Assembly: GCA_036867785.1 (NCBI GenBank)
Contig: CP145411.1
Coordinates: 310,001-374,000, forward strand
Length of the DNA: 64,000 nucleotides
Origin: Plasmodiophora brassicae
Taxonomy: Eukaryota
Reading direction: 5' to 3'
Below the pieces are notes generated by a model that searched no databases, had not been told where the DNA came from, and saw nothing but the letters and a program-made list of their open reading frames with translations. The position numbers and the translations under genes are program-made. Below, piece after piece: positions 1 through 45,253 of the stretch (its first letter is position 1; every line of letters begins with the position of its first letter).

Positions 1-3000
1 TTCCCAGTGCGCGATCCGTTCTTCCACATGCTTCGACGGTCCCTTCAGAATTTCATGAACGCGCTGACTGGCCCGGATTACACAATGTAGTGATGACGTT
101 GCCGGTGACGTTGCCGGAGAACGTTCTGACGGTGACGCTCGCGCGCAGGTATCCGTTCTCGACTTCGCACGTCGAAGATTTCGGCAACCTTCTCAGCGTG
201 TACTGTGACGCCGTTTTTAATCCGCTTCTGACATACAACGACTTTCGACAGGAAGGTCTGTCTGCGTACAGCTGTTTGCGGTACATCGTTCTGTACTTAG
301 GCACATGCAATGAACAGGGCACCGTCTGGAACACGAAATCTGGCACAGCCCGGAGTCGCCAGTTCAGATCAAGGGTATCGTGTACAACGAGATGAAAGGG
401 GCTATGTCCGATCCAGGTGCCTTCTGCTATGCCATGTGAACAACAGTATCTGATGTACGCGGCTCTAGCATCCGTCTTGCATCAGGAACTATGTTCCCGA
501 ATGTTCCCCCATTCGGCTTACCGATTCAATTCCGGTGGCGAACCGCATGCAATTACGTCCTTAACGCATGAAGAGTTAGTCGAGTTCCACCGGCGACATT
601 ACCACCCCAGCAACGCCCGCTTCTTTTCGTAATGTCGCATGGCCCTCGTCCATATCCGCCGCTTATTGTGTCAATAGGTACGGCGACCTTCCTCCTCAGC
701 TGCGGTACCTCAACGAAACCGTTCTATCGCGGTTCGAACGATGTGACGTAAACACGGAAGTTAGCTTGCAGTTCCCGTTCGACAAGGCCCCTGCTCCTTA
801 CCGTTTCAAGGGTCCACCGGATTCAATGGTTCAGTACTGATATAGCGGACCCTACTAGCTTGCAGAGCGACTGAATAATGTGTCCATCCAGGTCATTGAC
901 CCACAGAAGCAGACTACTGTCACCAAGTCGTTCCTCTGCATGGACATCCCGTCAGCAGATCCGGTTGACGTGACCGCCTTTTCATTGATATCTAATCTCC
1001 TGCTTCACGGATCTGATTCTCCAATGCACCGGGCGTTGATAGCACCCAACATCGGCTCCGGGTTCTCCTCAGTAACGGGCTTGATGCCAATGCGGCAGTT
1101 AGTCTGGTCGGTTGGCTTGCAAGGCGTTGCCTCTAGTGATGTCGACAAGGTTGCCGATATCATCAGGTCGACCATACGCGATTGTATGCTGAGCGGATTT
1201 GAGTCTAAGCGCGTAGACGCGATTCTTCACCGATATCGTCTGAGCCAACAGGAAATTCGGACGCAGTTTGGCCTCAACATTTTAAATCGAGTTATGCCAC
1301 GATGGCTTCACGGAAAGCCACCACTTCCTGCTATGCAGCTAGAAGCCCATCTGAAGGAGATTTCGACTCGAATGTCCCGTGGTCCATATCTGGAACAGCT
1401 TATGCGACGGCATCTCTTCGATAACAGTGAGAACCGGTGCTCTTTATGTCGATACGCTATCTGATGTCTGCTGAAGCTCACCAGCTTACTCTGGTGATGG
1501 AGGCGGACCCCGACTATATCTCCAACAAGATTGCCGCTGAGGACGAGAAGTTGAAGAGCACGCCGATCCCTGAACACATTGTGGAAGAAGCGCAAGCACT
1601 TGGGGAGGCGCAGGAGAAACCACAGGATACGCGCTGTTTACCGACATTGCATACCTCTGACATTCCTCCTGAGAACCCAAATGAGTGCACCGATATTACT
1701 GTCGACGTCCCTCGCCGTCGGAAATGTGAATGCTGGCATACGCCACGCTGGGCCTCACAGTATGTGTATAGGAGATATCAAATCCTTCTTTGTCCATCAG
1801 CCTACGAATGGCCTGGTTTACACAGACCTGCTGTTCGAGACTGAGAACGTCCCTACCCACCTGCGCCATCTGCTTCCTCTCTTCTGCAGGTGAGCCTGCG
1901 TTGAAGTCTGATATGGCCATTCCTTATTCATTTGGCACAGCGTCGTGGCTTCCCTGGGTGCTGCTGGGAAATCGTATGAGGAAATGTCCCATCTTCGATC
2001 ACTGTACACTGGTGGGGTATCCGCGTCGCTGCATCTGTTTAGCCCTATCTACAGTCTGTCAACCCATTCCGAGGTACCTGCATGAATAATACGCGCGAAG
2101 GGTCTCCTTATGAGTGTTAGTCCATCACGTTCCGTACGTCGTGTCTGAAGGAAAACTCGGAGGCAGCCTTGTCTTTACTCGGCGATATTGCAACGTCAGC
2201 GGATTTCAACGACAAGGGCCGCTTGCGTCAGCTGATCACTGATATTGCCGCGTCACTTTCTGCTGACATTGTACGTTCGTTTGAGGCATCCGCGTCTCGA
2301 TGCTATATGCTGACCAGCCTGAAGGTGGAGAGTGGACACGTTTATGCGAGAATGCATGCCGCCGCGCGCTGGTCGCCGTGCTTATCTGCGAAAGAGCGTT
2401 TCAGTGGCCTGACCAACGCGTCGCTCATGAACACGTTGGCAGCCAAGTGGGTGGGCAATTGCGCATTCCCTTCGTGTGAGCTAATCGTGATATCAGGATA
2501 AGCTCGGAATCAACGAGCGTCGCAACGCTCGATCAGTTATCCCACGACCTGTCGACAATCGCTTCCAGCATACACTTGCGTCGTAGTAACGTTGTTTCCG
2601 ATCCGGCTTTGATTACTGAAGTTGCTCCTCAAGTGTACAAGTGCCTCGACAGGTTTGTCCCTGGCACAGCAAGGGCAACTGGGTATAGATTGGCTTTGTT
2701 TATCAATGCCATGCATGGATAACGCTTTCTTCAGGGATATCGACAGCGCCTGGCAATTCTTGCCGCCGAACGAGGATCTGAGGCACTTCGTTGGCATTCC
2801 ATTGGAAGTGAACAACGTCGCCATGGCTGTCCCGTGCTGCGTTCCTTACGGTCACGAAGACAGTGCACCGCTTCGCACTGTCATGCGTATCATGTCCACC
2901 GAATACATGCATCGCGAGCTTCGGGAGAAAGGCGGAGCGTACGGCGGCGGGGCATCCTGGTCTTCAGACGGCGCACTGACGTTCTTCTCCTATCGGGACC

Positions 3001-3418
3001 CGAACCTTGACGAAACACTTCAGGCCTTCCTGTCTGCTTGCGTCTGGTAATACGCTGCTATCATTTTAACTGGTCAGGGTTACTGATATCGATCTGAGGT
3101 GCTGCGACGAAGCGAACATAACGGAAGAACGCGTCGAGCAAGCTATTCTGTCCATCTTCTCATCGCTTGATGCGCCGATCCATCCAGCGTCTCAGGGCCG
3201 TCTCGAGTTTATTGAGGGTATTACCCGTGAGCAACGTTTGGAGCATCGCTCTCGTCTGTTGAGGTGGGCGATCCTATACTCTTCCCGCTATTCGCCTTGT
3301 TGAGATTACTGACAGGTTGACGCCGAAAATCGTCTTGGACGCTGCCAACCGCCACCTTGCCAACATTTCTCTAGCAGATGCAGCAGTGACTGTGGTTGGC
3401 AACGAAAGCACCGAGTAG
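1..3418 (+). CDS. Presequence protease / pitrilysin-family M16C metallopeptidase (PreP/Cym1/PITRM1-like), 5'-truncated, multi-exon
   Basis: Spliced translation gives [80 protein letters not shown] and ELREKGGAYGGGA...FFSYRDPN, all typical M16C motifs. The last exon ends ...VTVVGNESTE* (TAG 3416-3418). Confidence 0.92.
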
Positions 3419-3713: not shown

Positions 3714-5781
3714 TTACCGGGCTCTACCGCTTTCAAGCTCGTCGAAAGGTAACCGGCCCAATACCTGAACCTGAGGCGCGACATTCTCGTTGGCATCCGC
3801 AGCATCGTCAGCACGTCTCCGGGAGGCCCCTCTGCTGGCCGATTTAGGCGTGGATTTAGCCGTTGACTGCCGCGAGGGCGACGGTTGTCGACCGCGAAGG
3901 GCGACAATCTCCGCCCTCAACGATTCGATGAGCCTGTCCTTCTCGGCCACTGCAACCTTATACCGGAGTAACTGTGAAGACTCGAGGCGACGACGTGCTG
4001 GCCCGAGGTCAACAAGCTTGCAGCGCTGGGCGAACCGCAGCGTACTCAACCCCTCTTGTTCTCCGCAAGGGCTCACGTGGACCAGAGTTGCAACCTTTGC
4101 GCTTGGGCTCAGAAAATCCTGAAGCAGGAAGGTCAAACGCGAATCCCTGAACGGAACGTGTTGATCTCCGTCCGACAGAGCTCTTATAACCTGAAAGCAG
4201 CGGTAAGAGCCGAGTACAACCGGTGTACAGTGGCAATCAGACCTTGGAGAGCGTGCTTAGCGATTTGTTGATGGCCTGCGACTCCCGTAAGCGGTCCCCG
4301 ACAGCACCAGACATTCGCAAGCGCTCACTGCCCGCAAGGTCGACAAGAGCGAGGCGTCCCGTTAACCGGGCACCCGACCGCTTGTCGACACTAACGGCAG
4401 TGAGGCATACAACCAAATGCGATCGCGAGCTCCGCTCGTTGCATAACGTGGCACCCGTGCTGCGTGAGCGAACAGCGCGCATGATCAGGGACCAAGCGTG
4501 CCGAACAGACTCCAGCGTTGTCCAAGTCAGGTTCGTTACACGCCCACCAGTCATGACATCCAACGGGAGCTCTGGCGCATCCGAAGGGACGAGAAGATCG
4601 CGTAACGTCTCGTTATAGATCTCGACGACGCTGGCAGCGAACGTAACGGAGCACACCGCAGAGCGTTCCTCGCGCAGGTCGAACATGTGCTGCAGAGCTC
4701 TGAACGTCACACCTCGATCATCAGGCGGACCTTCCATTGAGAACGTCTTCCCGCTATTCGTTGCACCTGTCAACACCACCTTCGACTTAGTGCCGGTTCA
4801 AGCCATGCGACCAATATCTAACTACACCATAGCTAAAGACGGAACCTGGACAATTGTGTCAATACACAGTTTGCTATGTGGACGGGCTGCGATCACGTTA
4901 CATGTGAAGCCGTCGAGGCACGACCTAAACAGGTCGCGAACTTCGCCGAACACGTCGGCCTGCGTCGCGTCTGGACCCAGCACGCGATCGAACGTGTACA
5001 GTTTGTCGCCAAGGCAGAGGGACGTGTCATCGGCGAAGTCGATATCGGCGTCGTCGCAACCGGCATCGGACTCGAGGCGAGGTCGAACTCTGACGATGAC
5101 CCGTACCTTGCCCCGGAGGTCTCCAATCTCGCCCAGAAGCGCACGACGAGTACTGCTGTCGACCTGGCAGCTCTGTCGCAGGTCAGCCACCTCCTGGCGT
5201 TGAGCTGTCAGACGGACGAGCAGGTCGTCGATCTGGACCTGAGATCCATCCAAGGCCTTCTTGGCCAGCGCGGCCGCTTCTGTTCGTAGTGTTGCCAGCG
5301 CGCAGCGCATGCTGTCCACAGACTGCTTCGCTTGGACCAAGGCGTCGTGCGATCGCATGCGAGTACGCGATAATTGCTGTCGAAGGTCCTCGATCTCCGC
5401 CTCGACATTGTCCAGCGCGCGTCGATTGGACGCGCGCTCCAGACGGTCGTGAATGTCGGACAGGCGCCGGTTGAGAGCGTCGCCGTCATCCGTGATGCAA
5501 ACAACGGGTTCGGTCTGGTGCTTCCCACGCAGCCGTACGGTCCGCTTCGGTGACCAGGTCGGCGTTGCGCCCAGGACGACGTACGCGTACTGGAAGTCGA
5601 CGGCGGGGACGTCCACCTGGCAACGCCACGTCGCCGCCGCCGCCGACTCCAGCGGCACCGCCCGCGACAGATCCCACCCGCCCAGCTGCTCGATCGACCC
5701 GGACAGCACCAGGCGGTCGGCGTCGCCCGCCGCGTACCGCACCTGGTACAGCAGGCGGACCAACGGCGGCGGCGACGACAT
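3714..5781 (-). CDS. Kinesin-14-type motor with N-terminal CBM20 (starch/glycogen-binding) domain and coiled coil
   Basis: Neck RRALLGEIGDLRGKVRVIVRVRP, P-loop GATNSGKT, switch I NERSSRSH, switch II LVDLAGSER, INKSLSTL and STLRFAQR. The N-terminus LVLSGSIEQLGGWDLSRAVPL...W..QVDVP..FQYAY...W resembles CBM20. ATG at 5779-5781. Confidence 0.88.
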
Positions 5782-5998
5782 CGAGGCCACCTCGCCGTCG
5801 ACCCAAAATGACTCCGCCAGCCGGGCCTGGCGACTGGCGACTGGCGAGTGAGTGGGTCGACTGTCGAGCCACTGTGCAGCCCCGAACACGCGCCAAAACG
5901 CGGCTTGTCTGCACAGACAAGCAGCCAGACGTCGAGATGTCGGACGCGATGCCGATGCGGGAACGAAAATGTACTCTGGTTTGTGCAACAAAACGCGG

Positions 5999-6439
5999 TC
6001 AGACGACGACGATGGCGCTTAGGGCCGCCAGAGCTACGAGGGACATCGGTGGCAGGGCGGGCTTGTTGCTGGTGCTGGACGACAGGGTGGAAGCGCTCTT
6101 GACTGGCTGGAGCGTGATGAACGCAGCGGGTGGCGGGCTTGCTGGCGGACGCGGCGCGTCCGTCGTAGGGCGAGCTGGCGGCGTGGTCGCTGTCGGCAGT
6201 GGTGTTACTGGATCCCGGTTCCTGGTTCAGGTCGGTGGGTCGAACCGGGCCGACACTGCATCGTGATGGTGGGCGTACCGGGGGAAGCAGACGAAACAGG
6301 CGTGCGGACAGCGGAACTCGAACTCCTGGCAGCGCTGGTGGCACTCTCTGCAATCCACACGATGCCGCCAACGAGCCTGTACTCCGAATATCAGGGCGGC
6401 GATCACGACGGCACAGTATACGCGCGACACGGTGCCCAT
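5999..6439 (-). CDS. Small secreted Cys-rich protein with Pro/Thr stalk and GPI-like hydrophobic C-terminus (2 exons)
   Basis: Signal-like MGTVSRVYCAVVIAALIFGVQA, then the 6-Cys module CRECHQRCQEFEFRCPHACFVC. A GT-AG intron at 6222-6278 joins in frame to NRDPVTPLPTATTPPARPTT...AFITLQP...MSLVALAALSAIVVV*. Confidence 0.72.
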
Positions 6440-17347: not shown

Positions 17348-17638
17348 TGGCGGCCCTGTTATTACACACCACACACTGCCTATACGATGTTGACCGCGCC
17401 GCGTCCACCGCCGCCTCCAGCGTCAGGGAACCGCGCCACCGCCGTGCATGAGTCACGCTGCGTGCCTTCCGACGGCGGTCGAGGCCGTCGCTCGGCCGGG
17501 TTCATTCCGGGACAGGTTCGTTGGCAACGACGACGACGTTGCCGGGACCGTCGCAGCCGGACCATCCAAACCGGAACGCATTCAATCCCCCATCCCCAAA
17601 CCGAACGTCCGGGAGGCGCGCGCTCCTAGCGTCGGGCC

Positions 17639-18817
17639 ATGCCGCAGACCTGGTTCACGCACTGCTTCGACGGGATCCGCTCGGCTCGGCAGGCGGCCGA
17701 CCCGAGCGCCTCGCTGCGGCACTTCCGCGAGGCCGCCCGCCTGTCCCCGGCGTCCGTCGCCGCCCGCGTCTGCCTCGGCATCCGCCTGCAGGCCGAAGGC
17801 GACCTGGACGGCGCCCGGCACCACCTCGACGTCGCCGTCCACCTGTCGTCGTCGTCCCCGTCGGCGTTCCTCGCGTCGCGCGCCCTACGCTGCCGGGCGC
17901 TGCTGCGGTACGCCACGCAGGACCTGGCGGACGCGGTCGCAGACCTGAACGCGGCCCTGAGACTGGACCCGGCGTTCGCCGAGGCGCTCTACCTGCGCGG
18001 CATGATCGCCATGGACCTGGACGACGCCGACGCCTGCATCGGGGACATGTCCGCCTGCCTGGCGATCGCGCCGACCGCCGGCCACGCGTACGCCATGCGG
18101 GGGACGGCGCGTGCCGCCCGGCACGATCGGGCCGGCGCCCTGCACGACCTGGGACGCGCGCTCGACCACGACCTGAACGACGCCGACCGCGCCGCGTTGC
18201 TCTTCTCCAGGGCGCATCTCCATGGCGACGACGACCCGGACGCGGCCATGGACGACCTGTCGGCGTCGATCGCGCTGCGCCCGCACCCGAGGTCGCTGAT
18301 GGCGCGCGCCGACCTGCACGACCGCCTGGGGGACGCGCGCCACGCCATCGCCGACCTCGAGCACGCCGTTCGGATCGGGGGCGGGCGGGAGCGACGCGAC
18401 GCCCGGCACCGCCTGGCGCGATCCCATTTCAGCGCCCGGCGCTATCGCGACGCCCTGCAGCAGTACGAGGAGATCGTCGGGAGCCATGACGGCGACGACG
18501 ACGACGAGGCGCTGCTGGGCCGGGCGCGATGCCTGGCACGGCTGGCGAGGTTCCGTCGCGCCGTCCACGACTTCAGCACGGTGCTGGGGCGGCGCCCGGG
18601 TGCCGCCCACGTTCGCGGCGAACGCGGCCTGGCGTTGTACGCCCTGCGACAGTACCGGCGGGCGCGTCCCGACCTGGCCGCCGCCGTGTCGCACGACCCG
18701 GGCAACGACGCCGTTCGCTGGGCGTGGACGCAGGTCGAGAACGCGCTGGCGTCGTCGTCGTCGTCGGTCGATCGCCGACCACCGACGATCAGACGCACGA
18801 CGTCGCTGCCGACCTAG
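17639..18817 (+). CDS. Tetratricopeptide-repeat protein
   Basis: Single 392-aa ORF with repeated TPR-like units (AVADLNAALRLDPAFAEALYLRG; AVHDFSTVLGRRPGAAHVRGERG). Confidence 0.85.
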   Translation: MPQTWFTHCFDGIRSARQAADPSASLRHFREAARLSPASVAARVCLGIRLQAEGDLDGARHHLDVAVHLSSSSPSAFLASRALRCRALLRYATQDLADAVADLNAALRLDPAFAEALYLRGMIAMDLDDADACIGDMSACLAIAPTAGHAYAMRGTARAARHDRAGALHDLGRALDHDLNDADRAALLFSRAHLHGDDDPDAAMDDLSASIALRPHPRSLMARADLHDRLGDARHAIADLEHAVRIGGGRERRDARHRLARSHFSARRYRDALQQYEEIVGSHDGDDDDEALLGRARCLARLARFRRAVHDFSTVLGRRPGAAHVRGERGLALYALRQYRRARPDLAAAVSHDPGNDAVRWAWTQVENALASSSSSVDRRPPTIRRTTSLPT

Positions 18818-20402: not shown

Positions 20403-23400
20403 TTACGTCGCCAACGATAGCAGCAGGGCAGTGCCCCGTTTGGTCCAGTACGTGGGGTCCTTGGCCCCCGACTTCAGGTCGACGTTGATCATGAAGGACG
20501 GGCGCTCCCGGGTGCCCGTCCGCACCGGGTACATGTAGAGCGGGCACGCGTACAGGCCCTTGCCCTGGCGGCCGCGCTTGTTGTCCACCGGCTTGAAGTG
20601 CACGATCGGCATCCGGCACTCGAGCTCCATGGGGCCGGCGTCGGCCAGCGTCATCTTGTCCATGTCCCAGCGGGCGCCCTCCAGGAACATGCCCTTGATG
20701 TACGCGCCGTCCTTCGGCATCGTCGTGACGGCCACCTCGTCCAGGTCGACGGGCGTGAACTCCCACGACAGGTCGTCGATGGCGACCCCGTTCCTCCTGG
20801 CCGTCGATTGCAGCAGGGCCGTCAGGAACCCGGTCGGGAACGTCAGGCCCGACAGCCAGAACACCTTCGGGGGGCCGTCCGCCGCCCACTTCGCCATCTG
20901 CTCGATGCGCAGGACGAGGTCGCGAACCCAGGGCCCCAGCGCCTTCAGCGACGGGTACGCCGTCTTCCACATGTCGGGCACCTGCCCGCCGTACAGCGCG
21001 TCGTACACCTGCTCCAGGGCCGGCGAGATCACGACCAGGCCCTTGATGCCGCGTCGCAGGTTTACCAGCGACGATCGCACGCGGCCCAGCAGCTGATTGT
21101 ACCGCCCGACCTCCTGGCACACACACACACACATCAGACGTCGTCGTTGCCCACCCACAGACACACACGCGCGCGACCGTCAACGGGGGGCCCTCACCTG
21201 CAGCAGGACGATACGGAGCGGGTTCGGGTCGCCGGCATTGCTTTGGTCGCCGCCGATCGGTGCCGGGACCTGCTCCAGCAGGGAGTCGATCAGCGCCAGC
21301 GTCGTGTCCTCGCGGGACAGGCCGCCCGCGTCCGCCGTTCGCGGCTGCAGCGACAGCAACGTCGACAGCAGCGTCGTCGTCTCCGCCATCTGCGACGAGA
21401 TGTCGGCGTTGGCGTGCTGGCCGAACGCCTCGGGCGGGTCCGCCGTCGACGGCAACGACTTGATGTAGGTGACGACGGCGGCCGTGTCGTTGTCGTCGGG
21501 GATGTAGTACGTGTCGAGCGGGGACAGCCGGGCGGCCTTCTTGGCCAGCAGCGCCTCGCTGAAGAACTGGTCGACGTACACGATCAGCAGGCGCCGGTCG
21601 CGGTCGTCGGTGACGCGCCCGCCGTAGTTGGCCTCGGCGATCAGGTACTTGAGCGCCTCCCACGGCGTCTCCTCGTACTCGTCGAGGTACAGGCGCAGGA
21701 TGCTCTCGCAGACGGCGAAGTCGCTGTCGTTGAACCCGTACGGGATGTTCCAGCCCAGCGACCCGAACTTGCGCCGCTCGAGCAGGACGGCGTGGAACCA
21801 GCACAGGGAGAACACGAGCTTCCTGTACTTGAGCGGGCGCAGGGCGGACGCGAACCGGTCCGGCTTCAGGCCGGCGTACAGGCGGAGGAGGTTGGCGCGC
21901 AGGCCCTTGGGCGGCTCCGTCGTGATCTTCAGGCCCCGCTGCAGGATCGGGATGGGGAACGCCGGGTGCGGGTCGCTGGACAGCCAGAGGCGGAACTGGG
22001 CGTGCGGCGCCGCCGGCTCCCCGTTGCAGTACGCGTCGACGAGCGCCTCCAGCTCGGGCATCCACGAGATCGACAGGTGGCAGTTGGCGAAGAAGACCCA
22101 GAAGCCGGTCTTCAGGCCCTGGGCCAGCAGGCGGCGCGCCGGCGCCTCCTGGCCCTGGCCCAGCGAGATCTCCTCGACCGTCGTGCCCGACGACGCGGCC
22201 AGGTCGCGCAGCATCGCAGACGGGTCGACGCCGGGCGACAGCACGAAGATGACGGGCGTGTACGGCGTCGAGTCGGCGTAGACCTGCGCCAGGTCCATCG
22301 GCGGCGGCTCGACGAACGTCGGGCCCAGGTTCTTGGCCACGAAGCGCCGCGCGGCGAACACGACCCGATCGGGGCGGAACACGCGCAGCAGCACCATCCG
22401 TTGCAGGTCGTCGATCCTGGTCTGCCATTCGCCCGGCAGCGTCGCCGTCTCCGGGCACTCGCTGCGGGCCCAGGCGCGCCACGCCCGGTTGTTCTGCTCC
22501 AGGCTGCCCTCGAGGCTCTTGAACCCGGCGACCTTGCCCAGCAGGGTGGCCTGCTCCCATTGCGCCTGCGGTGGACAGTAGCAACGTTCAGGTATTCGCA
22601 GGACCAGACGCATCGTCCCAGGGGGCACGGCACCTCCGAGATCCAGTCGGCGGACGGGTTGGCCGGCGGGGCCGACTCCCGGTCGACGACGATGCCGCCG
22701 CGTAGCAGGAACAGGTAGTCGTCGGCGTTGACCTTGCCCTCCGACTGCATCTTCTTGACGCACATCTGGAACGAGAACAGGAGCTTGTGCTTCTCGAACA
22801 GGCCGCGGCACGTGTTCTTGTAGACGGCGTCGGTGTGGTACAGGTTCAGCGCCCGGTTGCGCTCCTTGACGTCCAGCGTGCCCTTCGGCTTGCGCGACTT
22901 GTCGATCGACATGCGGAACATGTCAAAGTAGGCGTCCAGCGAGAACTGGTACATGGGGTCGATGCCGGCCAGGTCGTTCAGGACGAAGAAGAGCAGGGAG
23001 GCGCGCACGGCCGACGGCCGGTACGCGTCGCGCGCCGCGTCGATCTGCTTCTCCGTCTCCTGCGACACGCGCAGGTCCTCCGACACCTGCTCCGACGTCT
23101 GCTTCGACGCCTGCAGCGTGTTGATCAGGCCCTCGTCGTCCAGCAGCGACCCGGACGCCGTCTTCAGCAGCGACAGGATCAGGTTCTCCAGGTCGACCAG
23201 TTTGCGTTTGTTGGCGGCGACGGCGATGACGAGCGCGCTCTTGTCCTCCTCGAGCTTGGGCTGCTCGAGGCGGACCAGGAACCCGAGCAGCTGATCCTCG
23301 AGGCCCTTCTCCTTGACGGCGAAGTTCACGACGGTGCACTTGGCGCACACCTCGGGCGGGTAGTGCGGGTTCGGCAGCCGCGTCGTCATCCAGAACAGGA

Positions 23401-26400
23401 ACCGGTCGTTGTAGTCCAGCTTCTTGTCGCCCAGCTTCAGGTACTTGCGGCCGTTCTCCGTGATGATCGCCTTCAGCAGGATCGGGTCCAGGCTCGGGTC
23501 GATCTCGGCGCCCACATCCTGCAGCGGCACAGCGGGCAGGGGGTCAGCCAACGCTCGAGGACATCGGCGACGGCGCCCCTACCTGTAGCAGGACGGGCGT
23601 GCCGAACTGGACGGCGTTCTCGAGGACGCGGGCCGTGTCCGGCGCCTTCGTGTCGATGACGCGCAGCGCCCGGCCGTGGTAGGCCTTGGCCCATTTGTTG
23701 GCCTGGCCCTGCGGGTCGACCATCAGCGGCCACCGGTTGCCACGGGTGACCAGCAGGCCGTTCTCGGTCGAGAACTCGTCGGTCGGCAGGCCCTGGATGT
23801 TCCAGTCGCGGACGTCGGTCGGTACCGCCAGGAACCGGGCGAAGTTGAAATCGGGGCTGGCGGGCACCTCGAGCTTGCGGACCGCCTGCAGGCACGTCTT
23901 GACCAGCTCCTGCCTGTAGTGGCCGACGAAGGCGCCCGCGTACGACAGGAAGGCGGCGGCGACGGCGCAGTCGCCGACCAGGAACGACAGCTGACCGTCC
24001 AGCTCGGCGATCGAGTCCTGCCAGCGGGAGCGCTCGCTCGACAGGCCCGACACGAGCTTGTCGGCCCGCGACAGCTTCGTCTCGAGCAGCTCGGCCGCCT
24101 TCCGCAGCGAGTTCTTCTCGTTCTCGCTGCTCTCGTAGCGCTGCTCGAGGGCGGCGACCTGCTCCTTGACGCGGGCCAGGCGCTCCTGCATGACCTTCAG
24201 CTGCTTCTGCTTGATCTCCAGCGAGCTCGTGGCGTCCTTCAGGGCGGCGCGCTTCGGGGCCACCGTACGGAACGTCATGGCGTAGACCTCGATGGCGACG
24301 ACCCAGTCGCAGAGGGCGGCGGCCGCCACGCTCTTCTTCACGACCTGCTCGGCGGTGAAGTCCTTCACCGCCGTGTACTTGTTGATCTTCTTCAGCGTCG
24401 CCGACGAGATGTTGTCCTTGTCGAACGTTTTCAACCGCATCAGGAAGTTGGCGTCGCTCAGCTCCTTCTTCGCGGTCGCCCAGGACGCCTCCTTACCGAG
24501 GACGACCATCACCGCCGACATGACACGGGCGACGATCGGCGGCGGCTTCGTATAGCTCTTGATTTCCGTCACCGCGTTCTTGTCCAGCTTCTCCAGGGCG
24601 CTGACGGCTCGTTCCAGCGCGGGCAGCGCCCGGTCCAGGTCGGCCTGCGCCGATTCGGCAATGGACTGGCACTCCTTCTCCTCGGTGCTCGTCTTCTGCG
24701 CCTCAATTTCGACCTGCTTACGCTGCTCGTCGGCCGACCGCTGCTGGGACACGATCTCCACCAGCAGCTTCTCACAGTCCATCTTCTTCGCCGCAACGAT
24801 CTTCCGCTTCTCCTCGAGCTCGACCTACGAGCAACGCATGTCATCGAACCAGGCGGCGCCAGCACGGTGACAACGGGAAGGCCCACCGTCATCTCGGCGA
24901 CCTGCGTCTTGGACTCGTCGAGTTTGCTGAGACCGTTGCGGAGCTTGTCGGCGGCGTCGCCCAGTTGGATACGCTTCTCGATGAGGAGCTTGCGGTAGCC
25001 GCTGACCAGGTCCAGGTAGTTGGTCGGCGTCACGTACGTGAACCGCAGGAGTTCCTGGGCCATCCGGACCGCACAGGCCTGCACCTCGAGGTGGGCCGTG
25101 CAGAACACGCCCGCCAGGCGCTTCGGCAGCGACTCGTCGGTGGTGCCAAAGTCGACGTCGCACAGGAACTTGGCGGCGACCTCGCGCAGGGCCCTGTCGG
25201 GCCACTCGGCGAACAGGTCGATCGACGTGTTGTTGACGAGCGCCGGGTACATTCGAATGCGGTCGCGGAACGTCGCCCCGACCGGGCTCATGCACAGGAC
25301 GACGTTGACGTTCTGCCGCACACGGTTGATGAAGAACGCGTACAGGCCGTCGTCTGTGTGCGAGGGAACGCCCTGAGAACGCGTTTCAGATCATCACGAT
25401 TCGTACTGCGCTGCGAGTTGCGTCGTACCGCTTCGGCCGCCTGCGGGCGGATCGCGTCCAGGACGGTGGCGAGCTCGTCGGGCGGGAACAGGTTCGGGAT
25501 CTCGCCGCTCGACAGGATGCTGTTCAGGTCCTCGATGAAACTCGGATGGATGAGCTGCGTGTCGGTGATCAGGAAGACGCAGCGCTGCTGGCCGACGCCC
25601 GCCATCTGGTAGACGGCCTTCAGGTCGTCGCGGAAGTCGGCCGCCCGGTACGACTTGCTGATCTCGATCTGCTTGACGGGGACCTCGGCAATGTATGCCG
25701 CCAGCCGCGTCAGGCTCTGTCGGCCGCTGCCGCCGACGCCGATCAGCAGGGCGTTGCCGCGCGGCTGCGATATGATCCGGAAGATCCGGCAGACGTGCTC
25801 GACGGCGTCGTCGAACAGGACGAGTTGCATGGCGGCGTTTCCCGGGAACATATTGTAGAACTCGAGCTTCTCGGTGACGAACGCCTTGACGGCGGCCCTG
25901 TCCGCCATCTCCTGGTACGGCTCGGAGTCCTGGTCGTCCAGTGAGCCCTCCGACAGGAACGTCCCGAACAACGGGTCGGCGTCGAGCGTGCCGAACAGCG
26001 ATTCCCAGGACGTTGCGAACAGTGTGTCGAGCTGGGCGGCGACGAGCCCCTTGAACGCTTGCCGGTCGTCCCGGTTGACGAGCCTGTCTTGGAACACGCG
26101 CATGCACTCGTGGGCCCAGAGCCGGATGAAGTTGTCGCGCGTGTCGAACAGGTTGTGGTCGGCCAGCAGCAGGCCGGCCGTCACCTTGGCCATGTCGCGT
26201 AGGTTGAAGATGTAGTGCGACCTCGACGGCGTCGGCAGGAACGCCTCGATGACGTGCTTGTACAGGTCCAGGGTGGCGTCCGTGCAGACGGCGGCCAGCG
26301 GCTTCACCTGCTCGTCGAAGTTCGCCAGGTGCGCCGTCAGGATCGTCCCGAAGATGCGCTTGATCTGGGCGTCGCTCGGGAACGTCATGTGCACCAGGTT

Positions 26401-29400
26401 GAACTTGGACTGGAACCGGGACGAGATCGGCGTGCGGGCACCCCCGGGGGCGCCCATCGCCGCCAGCACCTGCATGTCGATGATCACCTTCATCGTCTGG
26501 CGCTGCCGGTCGTACCACCCGCCGTAGTCGATCCACTGTCGCAGGAGCTCGTTCGGCGGCTGCGTCCCGAACTCGTCCGGCGCCGGCATGTTCAGGTCGT
26601 CGATGAACACGACCAGACGCTGCCGCCCGTTGGCAGGGCCGAAGCTGTTCCGCTGCCGTTTCTCCATCCTCGACTCCAGCATCGCCTGCGTCACCGCCGA
26701 CGACGTCGCCGACGAGAAGTTCATCGTCATCGTCATGGTCTTGCTGTCGGCGTCCTCCATGGCGGACAGCAACGACGACGCCAGGACGGTCTTGCCCGTC
26801 CCGGTCACGCCGACCAGCAGCACCGGGTGGCGCTGCGCCAACAGCGCCGACACGATGAACGCGTTGCGAACCGTGTCGACGGTCGGCACCACCAGGCTGT
26901 ACATGGGCACGTGCGGAGGGGGCGCCCACGTGTTCGGCACCCGCTCTTCCCACGTTATCCACTGCGACACACACAGACACAATCGTCAGCGACGGCCGGC
27001 TCAGGTTCGGATGGCGCCTCGCCCCGTCGCACCTCCTTCTTGTTGGCGTCGACGACGTAGTCGTAGACGGTGTTCAGGCCGGGGAACGACGCCTGCGCCT
27101 CGCGCAGGAACTCGTCGATCTTCAGGCGCCCGGGTTCGTCGACGGCGGCGCCGACCGACCAGACGACGCAGAACATGAACCACTGTTCGATCAGGCGGGC
27201 GCGAGGGCTCGATGCGAACTCGTTGACGGCCGCCTCCTTGTCCTTCGCCGACATGGCCGCCGCCGCCGCCGCCGACACGACCGGCGCCGCGTCGACACCG
27301 TTCGACGGCGTCGCGAGCGAGTCGTACAGACGCGTTAGCGATTGGACGGCGTTGAACGCCGTGATCGGGATCAGCTCGCGACACCCGGACGACGCCTTGA
27401 ACGCGAGCAGCGGCTCGACGAACCGGTCGAACAGCGCCCGCAACAGGTCCGCTTGGTCCGGGTCCTTCTTCGCCAGCCAGCTCGTCACGAACGGCGCCCA
27501 CCCCAGGCCGTTCCTGGACCGCGGTCAGATACGACGATGGGGAACGCACGCGGGCGGACAGACGGACGTACTTGTCAAGGTAGACCATGCCGGCACGGGA
27601 GACCGTTGCCGGCGACGCCTGGGCGAGGTTCTGCACCTCGAAGAGCAGGGAGATCTGCGGGGTCAGCGCGATCCGGTCGCCGTTGATCAGCGTCAGGACC
27701 TTGTTGTCGTCCAGGACCGTGTTCATCGACTCGATCCAGAGCGTGTCGACGGGGCCGTCCAGGACGACCCACTTCTCGTTCGTGTTCTCGCTGCTGCAGC
27801 AGCGGCGAAGGACGGCGGCGATGATCCCGTCGGACCATTCGCGCGTGTTCAGGTCGTACGACCCGTACAGCTCGTTGTTGTCCACCGTCTTCGGGTTGAT
27901 CACGAACGACTCGACGCGCCGCACCCGGTCATCGGTCGACGTCGCCGCCATCGTCGACAGCGTCTTCGCCAGGATGCGCCAGGCGGTCGACTTGCCGGAC
28001 AGCGCCTCGCCGACGACCATGTTCCCATGACGGGTGCGCTTCGACTCGTACAGCTGGACGATCTTCTGGATCAGCGATGCGTTCGGCTGCAGGCCTTCGG
28101 CGCTCAGCTCGCTCTGCACATCAGCAATGTCAGCCATCCCGACGCCCTGCGGATCATCGGGCACTTGCCTTGATGACGTCTTCCATGGCGGCCGTGTTCG
28201 GTGGCGGCACCTCCAGACTCGGGAACAGGTCCTGCATCAGGCCAGCGAACAGGACGGCGTCGTCGGCGACGAACTTGGGCAGGTTCATGTCGCGAAGCGC
28301 GCGCACGAGAACGACATCTTCGGGCAGGTCCGAGCTCTCGCGATAGATCGCCCCGGCCCGGTTCAGCACCGACTTCACCGCTCGCAGACCTGCCGGGCGC
28401 GCCGGTCAGAAACGCACACGCGCCCGCCGTCCCCCGACGCAGGGCCGAATCGTTCGTTACCAAAGTCGTAGTGCTCCTGCTTCGAGAACTGCTGCTCCAT
28501 CAGGTTGTACAGCGTCACGATCTTCTGCGCCAGGACGCGGGCGTCCTTCAGCCCCTCCGACTGCAGCATGATCTCGGCGATCAGCGCAAAGTCGGGCACC
28601 ATCATGGCCACCGGCCTGAACAGCGACTTGAGGTTGTCGGGCAGTTCCGTTCGCCCAGCGTACCCCTGGGACGAAACGCCCCGCCATCAATCAGCAATCA
28701 GCCCGACCCGCGCTGGGCCCCCCATCGTGTCGCCACCTACCGGGTTCATCGTGATGAAGATGCCGACGGCCCGGTTCAGCTTGATGTTGACGCCCTCGAA
28801 CATCATGTAGTCGCGTTTCTCGGCGACGGCCGTGAAGATCGACGCGATCTGCTGGGCGACGACGGACAGCACCTCGATCCGGATGCGGTTGAACTCGTCG
28901 AAGCACCCCCAGGCGCCCGTCTGCGCCAGGCCCGAGTACAGCGTCCCCAGCGACTTGTAGTCCATGGCGTCGCTGCAGTTGAAGACGATGACGAAGTTGC
29001 CCATCGCCTTGCCGAGGTCCTTGACCGTCTCCGTTTTACCCGTCCCGGCGGGTCCCTGTGGCGACCCGCCCAGGTGCAGGTGCAGGGCGGTCGTCAGCGT
29101 CAGGTAGCACCGATCGGTGAGCGGCGTGACGACCAGGCGCCCGTTGTTGCCCTGGTACTCGTAGCCGTACGCGAACGACGTGTTCGTCTGGCGCACCTGG
29201 CACTCGCCATAGTCGCCCTCGCTGCGGTCGTAGTAGAACCTCAGCTGCGACGTCCACTGGAAGTCGTCGACGGCCGTCGCCCCGTGCTTCAGCATGCGTT
29301 CGATGACATCGCGGGCGTGCACCTCGATGGTGATCAGCGCGACGAGTTTCAGGCGTTCGATCGCGGACAGGTCGCCCCGGATCAGGACGGTCAGGCGCTC

Positions 29401-32400
29401 CAGGTACCGGTACCATCGGTTCCGGGTCTGCTTCAGCGCCTTTCTGGCCTTCTGCGGGTCGGCCAGGGCGCGCGTGCACTCGCTCGTCCAGGCGACCTGC
29501 CCGGACGTGATCAGCATCTGCCCGATCGTCGACCGGATCCAGTTCTCCCGCTTCGACATGGACTTCTGCACGGTGGCCACCGCCTCCTGCATGTGCTTGC
29601 GCAGCGTCTCCCGCATCGACTTCTCGACCTTGATCAGCCAGACCTCCACCGGGCCCTGCGTCGCGATCCCATACAGGAAGCGGACCTTCTCACCGTCCTC
29701 GGCGACCATGCCGATCACCTCCCAGCTGCGAGCGCCGCCGGCGCCCGCACCCGACGACGACGTCGACGGGTCGCCGCGCTCCTTGGCCTGGATCTCGAGT
29801 CTGTGGATCCCGGCGAAGCACTTCTTCACGTGGCGCTGCACCTGGGTCGGGTCGCGCGTCTGCCCCAGCACCTCCAGCAGGTCGTCGTCCGACAGGAAGT
29901 AGAACCTCGGGAAGATCTGCCGCTTCTTCTCCAGGTACTGGTCCAGCGATTTCTGGATCTTCTCCAGCGTCGCCTTCATGCGGTTCAGGCGATCCAGCAG
30001 GCCGTCCTCGTCGACGCAGCGCTGCGCGTTGCGGGTCGCGTTCCATCGGTCGAGGATCTCGACCCACGACCCGTTGACGTTCTCGAACAGGGCGGATTCA
30101 ACGGGCAGCTGCTTGCGGATGTCCTCGCTGCCGACGAAGATCGACTCCAGGTACATCCACTGGCGCTGCACGACCAGGACCGACTCGATGCACTCGGCGA
30201 TGTCGTTCAGCCGGCGGATCCACAGGTTGATCTGCTCCTCGAACGTGATGTAGTGCGGCGAGTTCTTCATCGTCGACAGCGACACGTGGTGGTCCTCCAG
30301 CGTCTGGAACAGGTCGTCGGTCGACACCACCTTCCGGTACCGCTCCTTGTACGGGACGACCTCGACGTTCATCGTCCGCCAGCGCTCCTCGATCTCCAGC
30401 AGCGTCTGCTCGATGCTGTACTCGCGCGACGCGATCGCCGACAGCGCGTTGATCGTCTCCGCGTGCTGATGGATGCCCAGGTCGAACAGCTTGCCGAGCG
30501 TGAACGCGTCGTCGTGCGGGTCGAACTGGTGGTCCTGGACCTCCTCCTTCAGTTCCGCCCAGTGCCGCTCGCGCATCGCCGGGTTCTTCAGGTCCTTGAT
30601 CAGGGGCATCATCGTCCGGAAGTGCTCGATGCGCTCCCGGGCGGCGTTCCAGACCGGCCACTTCTTCATGACCTTGGCCAGCTTCAGCAGGCGCGTCTGC
30701 ACGTCGGTGGCCTGCGCGTCCATCTCCTCCGGGTTCAGCTGCCGGAAGATGGCCGTCTTCCAGCTCTGCCAGTTCGCATGCCATGCGCTGGTCAGCTCCC
30801 AGATCGCCTGCAGAGCGGCCAGGTCCCGCTCGGTGTCCTCCAGGTCCTTGTACGTCGGCTGGGCCACCCCGAAGATGTCCAGACCCGGTTTCATGGCCGC
30901 CGCCGCGCCGCGAGACTCCTGCACCCGTTTCCGCCACGAATCCACGAGGACGAGCGCCACGTCGATGCCGGTGCCGTCGTCGGCGGCCGCTTTGAAGACG
31001 TCGGACGCCAGGAAGGCGCGCCGGTTCTCGCTGACGGCTTCGTTGAACGCGTCGAGGCTCATCTCCAGCCCTCGCTTCATGGACTGCTTGACCTGCGTCA
31101 GCATGACGTCGACCTCCTTCAGCGTCGTCAGGTACTGCGACCAGGACGGGCGCAGGTCGTCCAGCTGCTCCTTCTCCTCGTCCGTGATCACGACGCCGAA
31201 CTTCGCCAACGTCCGGAACATGTCGTCCAGCGGTTCGAATCGCGACTCGATGACGGGCGCCTCCTTCTTCATCTTGGACAGCAGGTTCAGGCTGGCGCCC
31301 AGCTGCTCCAGGTCCTTCGGCTCCCGACGAAGCTCCAGCGACGTCGACGCGATCAGGTCGCGCAGCGCCTGCAACTCGCTGGACGCGTTCGAATGCAACA
31401 GGGTCGTCAGGCGCGCCTGCCAGTCCAGGCAGTGGGCCACGAGCGACGCCTTCAGCTGCGTGCAATCGATACGAATGAACCGGACGGACCGGCTCGGGTC
31501 CTCGCTCTGCACGTCCTCCTGCATCGACTTGTACCGGGTGATGTCCATGTCGTACGACGACAGCGGGCGCTTCGTGTTGGCGTACCGCCGCATGTAGGCG
31601 TCCTTGTCGAGGTCCCACGTGGACTTGTACGCGTCCTTCCAGTAGGCGACCAGGTCGTTGATGTCGGTCGTCACGTTGCGCATGCCCTGGATGATGGTCA
31701 CGAACGTCTTCAGCACGTCCTCGTCGTTCGCGATGGCGTCGTAGAAGTTCTGCAGGTCGGAGTCGCCGGGTAGGCCACCGGGCGCTACTGGCCTAGGCCC
31801 TCTGGGCGACGCGGGCGCCACACCCGCCGCCGCCAGCGCCGCCGGGGCCTGCGAATCCACAACGGTGACGTTGTTGCGCTTCTTGCGTTTGTACTCCAGC
31901 AGGTCCTGCGACCACCACGTTGGACGAACGTCGCAATTGCAATGTTCGGAACGTACCGTCAGGCGTGGGACGACCTTCACCGTGTTCATCAGCTTGCGCG
32001 AGATGTCGTTGACGAGGTTGGTCAGGTCGGACATGTTGGGCCGGAACGCCACCGTCGACGTCTGCGCGCCCGACCCTTCGTCGAGGACCATGTCGACCTT
32101 GAACAAGGCCTGCGTCTCGTTCTTCGCGTCGCCTGCAATGGCCTTGGACAACTCCATGAGCGACTTCTTGACCATGTGACGCAGGGCGGCCTCGATCTGT
32201 CGGTCGATCCGGCGAATGTAGGCGGCCCAGGCGCGTTGGACGTCGGACGGCGCCTCGCGGAAGATGTCGTAGGACTTGTTCATGCTGGCGACAATCTCGG
32301 CGTGCATGGCGGCCAGGCCCTGCTGGACCCGGACGCGATGCCGCGATTGCGCCTCGTCGAACATGACGTCGGTGTACACCGTGCTCTTCTCGATGACGAC

Positions 32401-35155
32401 CAGGCCGGTCGCCGCGATCTTCCTGCACGTCGCCACGATGAACTGGTGCTGATGATGGAACTGCCCGATCAGGGCCTGCACTTCATGGCACTGCTCCCTG
32501 CAGATCTTGACGAAGAACTCCTTGACGTGCTTCTTCGACCAGGTCAGCTTGGTCAGCCCCGGGTTGATCCTCCGGTCCACTTTCCGCATGTGGTCGGCGA
32601 ACAGCTGTCGTTCGTCCGGCGACAGCGCGTCCAGCACCGCGTTGTACTCGCGCACGACCAGCATCACGTTCTGGTACAGGACCCTCTGCGCGTCGTGCAA
32701 CTTCGACATCTCATACGCCACGTACGGGATGGCGAACTCCGATCCCTGACCGCCAGACCGTTAATCGCCCGCATCGCGACAGACGACCTGTGCCTACCTG
32801 GAACTGCTGCCAGTACACGACCTCGTCGAACAGGCGCAGCAGGGCTTTGTCGAAGTTGGCCTGCAGGTGTTTCGACGAGCGGCGGTCGGCGCTGGCACCG
32901 GCAGGAGCGTCGCCGGCGTCGTCGGCGGCGGGGCCGTCGACGTTCGCCTCCCCAGGCGCATCGGCCCCGCCTCGAAGGAGGAGCGGGAGCTCCAGGCGCT
33001 CGATCAACGGCTGCGCTTCGTTCAGGGCCTCGACCTCGGCGACCCATTCGGTGTACATTTGCGTCTGGTAGGCGACCAGCACGCTCTCGACCTGTTCCAT
33101 GGCGAACCGCGCCTCGCGCCCTTCCCGGCTGGTGTCGTTCGCCAGGCAGGCGGCCCCGTCGATGATCGCGCGTTGCGATGCGATGCGCTTGGCGAGGCCA
33201 TGCGCCCACAGGGCCCTGCCAGCGTACTTCGGCTGGCACGGCGGCAACGGCGGCGCCTCGTGGTGCCGGTCAAAGTCGCGCTTGATCCAGAGCACTTCCG
33301 ATTTCAGCATGGTGAACACGTCGGCGATCTTCCGGTTCAGGATCGTCTTCATCGACACGCGCTTCGCAAGGATGGCGAACGCCTCGAGCAATTCGACGCC
33401 GCTCGCCACGGTCGACACCGAGTCGAACGCCGACGAGATGACGTTCGTCATCATGACCTCGAGGTCCTTGACGCCGTTCTTGAAGAAGTTGTAGTCGTCG
33501 TGCCAGTCGGTGGCCTTGACGTCCAGGATGTTGTAGTCCAGGCCTCGCAGGCGCTCGATGTGCTTCTCGAACGCGTCCTCGATGTCGTGCAGCGCCTTCT
33601 CGGTCTCGGCGCCTCGCGACCCGCCGAACGTCGGCAGCGGCGTCTTCCCGTGCGACTCGGTGGACGACTTCCTGGCGAATTGCACCTGGCCCTCGCAGAC
33701 CTCCAGCAGCTCCCGGCAGCGCTGCACGAAGGCCTCGATCTGCGCGAAGATCGACGACGGGTCAAAGTTCCAGGCCGCCTGCGACGACGACGATCGGCGG
33801 ACGGCCTCGACGGTCCGCTCGTAGATTCGTCGCCATTCGACGCCGCAGCTGATCGATTCGCGCAGGTGCACCATGCTGGCGTGGACGTCGCCGTTGAAGA
33901 TCTCGTTCAGGTCGATGGCCTTCGTGCACTGCTTGATGATCTGCGACGACACCTTGCGGAGCAGGCCCGTCAGGCGCTCCTGCGTGTTGTAGAACTTGGA
34001 CAGCGTCCAGATCATGCGGATCAGGTTGAGGATGTCGACCAGCAGCGGCGGGATCTGGTTCGGCGCGGCACCCTTCAGCTTGTTGCACGGCTCGTGCAAC
34101 GTCTCCAGGAACCGGAGGTTGTCGTTGGCCTCGTCGGACCCCGACTGGATCATGCCTTTCAATGTTTCGAACGGGCGAAGGTATGACGACCCGACGATCT
34201 GCAGGACGCGAACGATGTCGACGACGATCGGGCGCTCGAGTTGCCGGCGAATGCCCAGCAGGTCGACGGTCCGCGATCGCCAGAACTCGATCTCCTCGAG
34301 CGGGCCGGATTCCTCGACGTGCTGGGACGTGTCCTGGTTGGTGACCACCTCCTTGATCTGACGCGTCCAGTGGATCAGCGTCGACTCCAGGCGCTGGATC
34401 AGGTCCTTGTCGGCGACGGCCGCCTCCACGTCCGACAGGTCCTCATCCGGCATGTACAGGATCGTGCTGCCCTTCGAATGGTTCACCGTCTCCGTCAGGT
34501 TCGCCATGAACTTGTGCAACTGGCCGCTGAAGTCCTTCCGGACGCTGGCCGGCCACGACGAGTTGTTCAGGAACGTGGGGACGTACAGGTTCGTCATGAC
34601 AGCGAAAATGTTGTCGAGAGCAGGGCCGGAAACGATCCCATACTGGACGGCGTCACGAGCATCGGCAATGGACAGCAGCGTCTTGCCGTTGTCTTTGATG
34701 AAGTACTGGAGCTGGGGGACACCCGTCGGCATCGAATCCGTGTGCAGAACGACACGATGGTTGTCGGTGTCGACGACGACGGTCAGGCGGGTGATGCTGG
34801 GCGACACCAGGAAATCGGCAATGATGAAACTGTGTTCGTCGCGCCACATTTCCGGCTGGAACCCATCGAGGCGGATTCGGGCCCAGATCCATGCGATCGC
34901 CTCGTCGTCCGGGATCTGCTCGCTGGCGTCCAGGTTATCGTCGGGGCCGATCGATGAGAACCCTGATGATCTGCCAGGCGCGCCGAGGACGCTGGTGCGA
35001 CTGGGGCCGCCGGGTTTCGTTGAGGGTCCGGTTATGGAGGATCGTTTCGATGTGGATGCAGGTAGGACGATGGAGGGAGCGACTTTATCGCTGGCCTCGG
35101 CCTCGTTGACGTCGTCGTCGACAGGCAGGGCGGATGAAGCGCCCTCCGTCTCCAT
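20403..35155 (-). CDS. DNAH2: Axonemal dynein heavy chain, inner-arm I1/f beta type (DNAH2-like)
   Basis: N-terminal [15 protein letters not shown]...[13 protein letters not shown]-loops [24 protein letters not shown] and GVGGSGRQS, plus CFDEFNR and the stalk coiled coil. C-terminus [14 protein letters not shown]. Roughly a dozen short introns. Confidence 0.93.
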
Positions 35156-35282
35156 CGAGGACAGCGCCTCGCTCCAGGAGGACCAGCAATAATGTCAGAC
35201 AGTGCACCGGTCACAGATCGCAGGTTGCAGATCGTCACATGAAGGCCATGTGTTTACTTACCTGCACGTACATAGTATATAC

Positions 35283-44772: not shown

Positions 44773-45253
44773 TACTGCCAAGTACGTTAACGTCGATCGG
44801 CCTGTACGCTGCTTACACCGATCGTACTGGGGCGAATCACCTCCGTGTCTCTGGACAGAACTGTCGGCCAGTATGAGAACGTCGATTCGATGTCGTTACG
44901 GCTTAGGGGATTCTAACTGAATGGCAGACGGGCTTGCCTCGTTCCTGCTCACCATGAAATTAGGAAGAACTCGCGATGCGTGCATTTCGCTATTCGAGTG
45001 TACGTTGACGGGTCTTCATTTGTCATGCAGGGCTACCTGACGAGTTGTCCCTTCCTTTCTAGCGAGCGCCTGGCAACGCATCTACATTTCCAGAGATGGG
45101 ACGGCAACTAAATGGTCGAAAATGTCATATCTTTGGCACTCGTTTGCCAGATATGGTACTGATACGCTTTCCGAACCGAAAATTCCGCATCGCGTCCACC
45201 GGCAAACGGAGACCGCAGACGGCAGAGCGAGTCAACCGATTGTGATTGTCGTA

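Follow-up and report, generated by a model that had tools for sequence, protein, structure and literature searches.

What is a starch-binding module doing on a microtubule motor? The question is raised by PBRA_005211, a gene on the minus strand of the 64,000-nucleotide stretch of DNA analyzed here from the clubroot parasite Plasmodiophora brassicae, a member of the Phytomyxea within the Rhizaria (assembly GCA_036867785.1, contig CP145411.1, positions 310,001 to 374,000; hereafter the window, in whose coordinates all positions are given). The gene occupies positions 3714-5781 and encodes a 632-residue protein annotated as a “Kinesin-like protein”; a database search found the deposited protein, which also appears as UniRef A0A0G4IN55, to be 100% identical, and it carries precomputed Pfam matches to PF00225, PF16796, and PF00686. 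We find that PBRA_005211 is a genuine, spliced gene that is transcribed as one mRNA. Its product is a cytosolic protein with a carbohydrate-binding module of family CBM20 at the far end of a helical stalk of approximately 96 residues and a kinesin-14 motor at the other end.

Gene model and transcripts

On the minus strand, a frame without stop codons runs from 6018 to 4822. Its first ATG lies at 5781, and no ATG occurs in any frame of the same strand in the 237 nucleotides (nt) upstream (5782-6018). This one frame encodes the CBM20-like module, a long helix, the kinesin-14 neck, and approximately the first 70 residues of the motor, and the junction between CBM20 and motor therefore lies inside a single exon. 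An earlier note on this DNA had described such an uninterrupted frame, passing from the module through a coiled coil into the neck and motor, and this description holds. The end that it gave for the frame, near 4880, does not: exon 1 ends at 4902, and an 18-nt micro-exon had been missed. The full gene has four exons and three introns of 56, 61, and 52 nt, all bounded by GT..AG, and when the exons were joined by script, the translation was exactly the deposited 632-residue protein. A micro-exon of this size is easily overlooked by gene finders; here, the deposited model and the transcript contigs concur. The first glycine codon of the kinesin P-loop is split over its 3' junction. With a crude hydropathy test (Kyte-Doolittle), no signal peptide or membrane segment was found in the protein, the highest 19-residue mean being 1.11, as would be expected from the earlier claim that a signal peptide is absent.

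The stretch is present in 20 public sequencing runs from 11 studies, and four runs from four studies were examined as contigs. The 52-nt intron is missing from the contigs of all four, and between 4767 and 4900 each of the four runs has 15 letters matching the micro-exon in reverse complement. The contigs continue unbroken from the 3' end across the CBM20 region in every run, up to the end points given in the table below. The kinds of these runs could only be guessed to be RNA; because the introns are absent from them, we take the contigs to come from spliced RNA. Contig depth is not a measure by which expression level can be ranked. Transcripts spanning the CBM20-motor junction, which the earlier note had named as a way to confirm the fusion, are thus represented by unbroken, intron-less contigs in four of four runs.

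The module, the stalk, and the motor

Four independent lines (Pfam, the ESM Atlas, AlphaFold2 [AF2], and Foldseek) agree that the N-terminus of the protein is, as predicted, a true CBM20. The Pfam profile CBM_20 (PF00686) matches residues 21-73 over profile positions 15-72 of 97, scoring 31.7 bits where the gathering cut-off is 23.3 (E 1.4e-7). An AF2 model of residues 1-110, built from a 14-row alignment, is a beta-sandwich with strands at residues 7-15, 23-28, 51-59, 63-70, 80-82, and 93-98 (predicted local distance difference test [pLDDT] 84.3, predicted template-modeling score 0.77). When this model was compared with the PDB by Foldseek, 58 matches were obtained at E<=0.001. The matches listed are CBM20-bearing entries, with template-modeling (TM) scores on the query of 0.63-0.77, and they include Hypocrea glucoamylase (E 2.4e-7, TM 0.77), CGTases, the STBD1 CBM20 with maltotetraose, the starch-binding domain of a Bacillus beta-amylase, the GDE5 CBM20, and laforin. 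In the ESM Atlas, the closest clusters to residues 1-110 are CBM_20 (score 0.96). Comparison with the PDB by sequence alone gave a weak result, the best match being the glucoamylase starch-binding domain 1ac0 (E 0.024). The module that the earlier note had called CBM20-like gave a positive answer in the profile search, the structural model, and the fold comparison alike.

Both of the stacking tryptophans of binding site 1 are kept. W36 aligns with the tryptophan of LGDW in 1ac0 and W76 with the tryptophan of TW(E) in CGTase; in the numbering of Aspergillus glucoamylase, we take these to be W543 and, aligned through CGTase, W590. In a set of 11 proteins with a kinesin-linked CBM20, W52 and W76 never vary and W36 hardly does.

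Behind the module, a full-length AF2 model (11-row alignment, mean pLDDT 68.8) places a low-confidence linker and a single 96-residue helix, which ends 7 residues ahead of the first motor strand at residue 227. A two-copy structure prediction of residues 95-235 scored 0.10 (mark 0.32), which counts neither for nor against a dimer. The motor is not strictly terminal. Approximately 100 residues lie beyond it, comprising a post-motor helix and a tail of low pLDDT.

The motor itself is assigned to the kinesin-14 family, nearest to KIFC3 and KCBP (KIFC2/C3-like). On the separate exon pieces, the Pfam Kinesin profile (PF00225) gives 17.3, 161.4, and 55.1 bits over the consecutive profile positions 40-76, 82-263, and 265-326, and Microtub_bd (PF16796) gives 52.3 and 35.1 bits. 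Among solved structures, the best matches are KIFC3 (5wde; 227 bits, E 3.9e-66, residues 223-536), two KCBPs, Kar3, KIFC1, and Ncd; all of the top 12 are kinesin-14s, and the first member of another family, KIF15, appears at rank 13. The nearest named neighbors in a tree of motor domains are annotated “kinesin family protein C2/C3”. Both switch I (NERSSRSH) and switch II (LVDLAGSER) have the canonical form. The Kinesin profile, the solved matches, and the AF2 helix together bear out the earlier assignment of a coiled coil followed by a kinesin-14 neck and motor.

The closest counterpart of the whole arrangement is P0006, a phytomyxid-like protein of 688 residues. It is 45% identical to the P. 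brassicae protein (213 bits, aligned over residues 4-295) and likewise combines CBM_20, Microtub_bd, and Kinesin. Identity between the two differs by part: 65% in the motor, 63% in the post-motor helix (residues 536-576), 39% in the tail, 49% in the CBM20, and 26% in the stalk helix. Given how far its identity exceeds that of the stalk, the module is being kept under constraint and is no decaying remnant. Residues 86-124 (window positions 5410-5526, minus strand), which come directly after the core of the fold, have low model confidence and yet are 54% identical, comparable to the CBM20 fold and far above the stalk. These residues may form a second functional surface.

Relatives and neighboring genes

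To place the pairing of CBM20 and kinesin among known proteins, residues 1-295 were used in a HMMER search, which returned 1232 matches at E<=0.001; the best 150 of the 1232 were analyzed. Pfam scans of 98 of these found CBM_20 together with kinesin-type domains in six proteins (P0006, P0024, P0058, P0062, P0113, and P0132), all among the first 42 scanned (E<=1e-5), and in none of the 56 scanned after them (E<=1e-6). For the remaining 52, the sole check was a hidden Markov model built from kinesin-linked CBM20 segments, which was run on all 162 collected proteins. It found eight CBM20-only proteins among the 162 and no further CBM20-kinesin among the best 150 of the 1232 matches. CH-domain KIN-14I/J proteins are also among the homologues, and a search limited to residues 1-110 returned the P. 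brassicae protein alone. A profile search with seven CBM20-kinesins added to this picture: among the 120 proteins listed, PF00686 and kinesin domains occur together in five (P0058, P0167, P0168, P0169, and P0170).

The pairing is patchy but recurrent: red algae and a cryptophyte have it, as do the phytomyxid-type proteins. Five red-algal genera are represented, namely, Galdieria (P0024, Galdieria partita), Cyanidium (P0169, Cyanidium caldarium), Cyanidiococcus (the cluster of P0167 includes Cyanidiococcus yangmingshanensis), Cyanidioschyzon (the cluster of P0168 includes a 1160-residue Cyanidioschyzon merolae “kinesin-related protein, C-terminal motor subfamily”, XP_005539149.1), and Porphyridium (P0170, Porphyridium purpureum “KIN-14S”). 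To these are added the cryptophyte Hanusia phi (P0062) and P0006. These red algae and Hanusia store starch outside the plastid stroma. The red-algal proteins, such as XP_005539149.1 and the P. purpureum KIN-14S, have the same order of CBM20, coiled coil, kinesin-14 motor, and post-motor helix, but are approximately twice as long (986-1417 residues), and some add a PLAT domain. The post-motor helix is common to the phytomyxid and red-algal proteins; such a helix is present in many kinesin-14s. In P0024 and P0170, the extra domain is an N-terminal PLAT/LH2. Because PLAT/LH2 is a lipid- or membrane-associating module, its presence suggests that these two proteins bridge membranes as well as glucan.

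Trees were built from 69 motor rows and from 39 CBM20 segments, the latter a small comparison set chosen by similarity to the query. In the motor tree, the P. brassicae protein has P0006 as its sister (support 99, 64% identity), and this phytomyxid pair groups with a diplonemid protein that lacks a CBM20 and sits on a long branch (support 97), a placement to which long-branch attraction may have contributed. Two red-algal proteins pair with each other (support 99) apart from the phytomyxid pair, on a backbone that does not resolve. Forcing five CBM20-kinesins into one clade cost 1.68 log-likelihood units (approximately unbiased test, p 0.486). In the CBM20 tree, the cryptophyte modules (Hanusia phi and two others) nest with Galdieria and Porphyridium (support 90), and the phytomyxid pair stands separately on a weak backbone. 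The nesting hints at a red-algal ancestry of the cryptophyte modules, which would fit inheritance from the red-algal endosymbiont.

The earlier note knew of no characterized CBM20-kinesin and left room for the architecture to be already widespread and described. As to the first part, it recurs in the lineages named above and has been annotated automatically in databases; as to the second, no publication describing a CBM20-kinesin was found, by title or abstract, in the full-text literature, a search outside of which subscription-only literature lies. The combinations of Plasmodiophora brassicae with CBM20, and of kinesin-14 with carbohydrate-binding module, matched no papers in the full-text literature. 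Among the matches listed for at least two of starch binding domain, CBM20, and kinesin, a glycophagy review is the only one that holds both module and motor. The papers matching kinesin with floridean starch are unrelated, and those matching kinesin with starch binding are not on point, judged by title. The pairing is thus uncharacterized in the papers searched, already visible in automatic database annotation, and not unique to P. brassicae.

The other genes of the window are of varied kinds. Downstream of the kinesin gene and convergent with it lies a gene resembling the PreP/M16C presequence peptidase (approximately 2121-3418, plus strand), the two stop codons being separated by approximately 300 nt. 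In two of the four runs, one contig each extends from the kinesin transcript beyond 3600 toward this gene, as expected when 3' ends overlap in unstranded assemblies. Of the 96 frames of at least 170 residues in the window, 63 (outside the kinesin region and not short overlaps) were scanned with Pfam, and no glucan-related family was found among them at E<=1e-6. A very large dynein heavy chain gene looks axonemal in type, judged from its domains; over it, high G+C goes together with long open frames on both strands.

Table. Parts of PBRA_005211 and other annotated genes, in window coordinates, with the basis of each assignment (CDS, coding sequence)
Feature	Position	Strand	Basis
5' untranslated region, minimum extent	5782..5961	-	Intron-less contigs reach 5794, 5872, 5925, 5961 (4 runs); no ATG in 5782-6018
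Exon 1: residues 1-293 plus 1 nt; CBM20, linker, stalk helix, neck, motor start	4902..5781	-	Open reading frame; CDS = deposited protein P0002; unbroken contigs
Predicted CBM20 beta-sandwich, residues 7-98; W36, W76 (site 1), W52 (site 2), Ala66 replacing site-1 Lys	5488..5763	-	Pfam, AF2, Foldseek, alignment to 1ac0 and CGTase
Linker, residues 99-124, low model confidence	5410..5487	-	Full-length AF2 model
Stalk, single predicted helix, residues 125-220, continuing into neck	5122..5409	-	Full-length AF2 model; weak Pfam coiled-coil-type matches
Neck (RGKVRV) and first motor part, residues 221-293	4902..5121	-	PF16796 residues 209-293; PF00225 residues 259-294; KIFC3 alignment from residue 223; motif block
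Intron 1, 56 nt, GT..AG	4846..4901	-	Contigs; CDS check
Micro-exon, 18 nt, residues 294-300 in part; strand directly before P-loop	4828..4845	-	Deposited protein; contigs; CDS check
Intron 2, 61 nt, GT..AG	4767..4827	-	Contigs; CDS check
Exon 3: residues 300-474; P-loop GATNSGKT, switch I NERSSRSH, switch II LVDLAGSER	4243..4766	-	PF00225 161.4 bits; motif blocks; KIFC3 alignment
Intron 3, 52 nt, GT..AG	4191..4242	-	Skipped in contigs of 4/4 runs
Exon 4: residues 475-632 and TAA stop (3714-3716); motor end (to ~535), post-motor helix 546-575, disordered tail 577-632	3714..4190	-	PF00225 55.1 bits; AF2
TPR-repeat protein	17630-18814	+	Pfam
Dynein heavy chain gene, very large	about 21183-35194	-	Pfam DHC_N1, DHC_N2, DYH2-5-8 coiled coil, AAA_6/7/8/9, MT stalk, Dynein_heavy, AAA_lid_11
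Ribosomal protein S2	36449-37177	-	Pfam
Branch-2 histidine phosphatase	45041-46665	+	Pfam
Acyl-CoA oxidase, C-terminal part	48473-49417	+	Pfam
Fibrillarin	51369-52664	-	Pfam

What the protein may do

The reading we favor, tentatively and as one that falls a little short of probable, is that the protein serves alpha-glucan particles as a minus-end motor or tether. The stalk would dimerize as in other kinesin-14s and display two CBM20 heads, which would bind via W36 and W76 to the alpha-1,4-glucan surfaces of glycogen-like particles, or of starch-like material, in the cytoplasm of the parasite. The motor would walk toward, or hold near, microtubule minus ends. In this way, neither a membrane nor an adaptor protein would be needed to gather, position, or partition glucan particles on microtubules, and the red-algal and cryptophyte CBM20-kinesins would be read in the same manner.

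Parts of this arrangement are familiar from other systems. The nearest functional analogy is STBD1, the animal glycophagy receptor (8x8k; fold match E 1.5e-6), which is also a non-enzymatic CBM20 linking glycogen to trafficking; STBD1 is described as membrane-anchored and as passing glycogen to Atg8-family proteins, whereas the P. brassicae CBM20 is fused straight to a motor. Laforin, a CBM20 joined to a dual-specificity phosphatase (4rkk; fold match rank 19), is likewise a cytosolic eukaryotic CBM20 fusion, by which an activity is brought to glycogen or starch, but it is an enzyme and the P. brassicae protein a motor. Among kinesins, the animal kinesin-14B proteins KIFC3 and KIFC2 also have a coiled-coil stalk with the motor on its C-terminal side. 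KIFC3 lacks a carbohydrate-binding module, and the P. brassicae protein differs from it in its CBM20, its neck, and its P-loop. The plant kinesin-14s KCBP (MyTH4-FERM), which supplies the second and third best solved matches, and KCH (CH domain) also combine a kinesin-14 motor with a lineage-specific N-terminal targeting domain, and the malectin-domain kinesins are a further plant kinesin-14 analogue. These accessory domains bind proteins, actin, or cell-wall-type glycans, and none is a CBM20.

Numerous points weigh against a glucan-carrying motor. Glucan binding by this CBM20 is itself a prediction. The site-1 lysine (K of FEYKF/Y, which we take to be K578 in glucoamylase numbering) is Ala66 in P. 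brassicae and also Ala in P0006; the earlier note had read this change, together with the retention of both site-1 tryptophans, correctly. The lysine is present in Galdieria and P0058 (the motifs are FQYKY in Galdieria and FDYKY in a cyanidiophyte-like protein), and cryptophyte-type rows have Gln. Site 2 retains only W52, presumably W563 of glucoamylase; one tyrosine position, presumably Y527, is Asp20, and the loop of the other, presumably Y556, is deleted in a four-residue gap relative to 1ac0. Because the site-1 lysine is replaced and the site-2 tyrosines are missing, glucan affinity may be weak or specificity changed. In the motor, the P-loop reads GATNSGKT, which fits GxxxxGK[ST], versus GQTGSGKT in related proteins. 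The neck-motor junction, at which G-N is the conserved kinesin-14 motif, is G-K (RGKVRV; RGKIRV in P0006) versus G-N, (K/T)GNIRV, in the other five of seven aligned CBM20-kinesins; the red-algal rows with an intact motor have the canonical form at both places. The G-K neck and the GATNSGKT P-loop are shared with P0006 and are therefore conserved features, not errors, and with such variants, both ATPase activity and directionality have to be assumed. From the trees, a shared origin of the phytomyxid and red-algal proteins is neither demonstrated nor rejected. The words “starch” and “glucan” are absent from the main text of the P. brassicae genome paper (PMC4471660), which discusses trehalose, and among the matches listed for Plasmodiophora with glycogen, none concerns the parasite's own glucan by title or abstract. 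Finally, engulfed host starch sits behind a parasite membrane, out of reach of a cytosolic protein.

Some of these points would be accommodated if the CBM20 were a regulatory or protein-binding module that switches, anchors, or localizes an ordinary kinesin-14B, or if sugar binding had been lost altogether, an alternative that we regard as somewhat unlikely. For comparison, glycogen-binding modules tune AMPK. The replaced lysine and missing tyrosines, found in both phytomyxid-type proteins, would fit such a role, as would the lack of a parasite alpha-glucan in the main text of the genome paper and among the glycogen literature matches listed; and residues 86-124, as conserved as the fold (54% versus 49%), hint at a second interaction surface. 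However, the three tryptophans that stack on the ligand are kept throughout the kinesin-linked CBM20s, and the pairing recurs in lineages with extra-plastidial starch, which sugar binding fits better than generic protein contact.

It is also conceivable, if quite improbable, that the protein mainly serves mitosis or the flagellar apparatus, as a kinesin-14 that cross-links and focuses microtubules, its CBM20 being a lineage-specific tail of little functional consequence in place of a microtubule-binding tail. The spindle motors Kar3, KIFC1, and Ncd are among the close sequence matches, and the motor is the best-conserved part of the protein. However, KIFC3 and KCBP, not the spindle-type 14A motors, head the matches, and the C2/C3 annotation of the named tree neighbors points the same way. 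A tail of little consequence would also be at odds with a CBM20 that is far better conserved than the stalk and persists both in two phytomyxid-type proteins and in numerous algae.

A role on host starch, with the protein either delivered into the host cell or pulling in amyloplast starch at a phagocytic cup, seems very improbable. The biology of infection gives it some appeal: P. brassicae plasmodia are reported to surround and internalize host starch grains (PMC10953367), and a preprint reports starch use and high expression of a secreted parasite amylase (10.1101/2023.04.28.538786). However, neither a signal peptide nor a membrane segment was found by the crude hydropathy test, the parasite membrane separates a cytosolic CBM20 from engulfed starch, and free-living algae, which do not feed on starch, also have homologues. 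A secreted effector was rejected on the same grounds of signal peptide, intervening membrane, and free-living homologues. An annotation or assembly artifact merging two genes, which the earlier note had rightly dismissed, was rejected as well, since the junction lies in one exon and one frame, spliced contigs span it in four of four runs, and P0006 has the same layout.

The motor or tether for alpha-glucan can be extended into a broader proposal, which we consider unlikely as stated. In it, the CBM20-kinesins would be a distinct, undescribed class of motor that takes hold of a naked polysaccharide particle as its cargo, with neither membrane nor adaptor in between; in P. brassicae, the motor would collect or partition alpha-glucan built from host-starch carbon, as part of carbon hoarding during gall growth and spore formation.

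To our knowledge, textbook kinesin cargoes are all membranes, protein or RNA complexes, or other microtubules, held via protein tails or adaptors, and the positioning and inheritance of glycogen or starch granules in cells with cytosolic glucan are largely unstudied. If the glucan-carrying reading is true, a CBM20-tailed motor would be the first direct link between storage polysaccharide and microtubule transport. A glucan-linked motor would also be a candidate component of the P. brassicae carbon economy, because the parasite is reported to divert host carbon into root starch and to feed on it (PMC10953367). Beyond this parasite, the red algae, the cryptophyte, and the phytomyxids would provide a comparative set in which one versus several origins of the fusion can be weighed.

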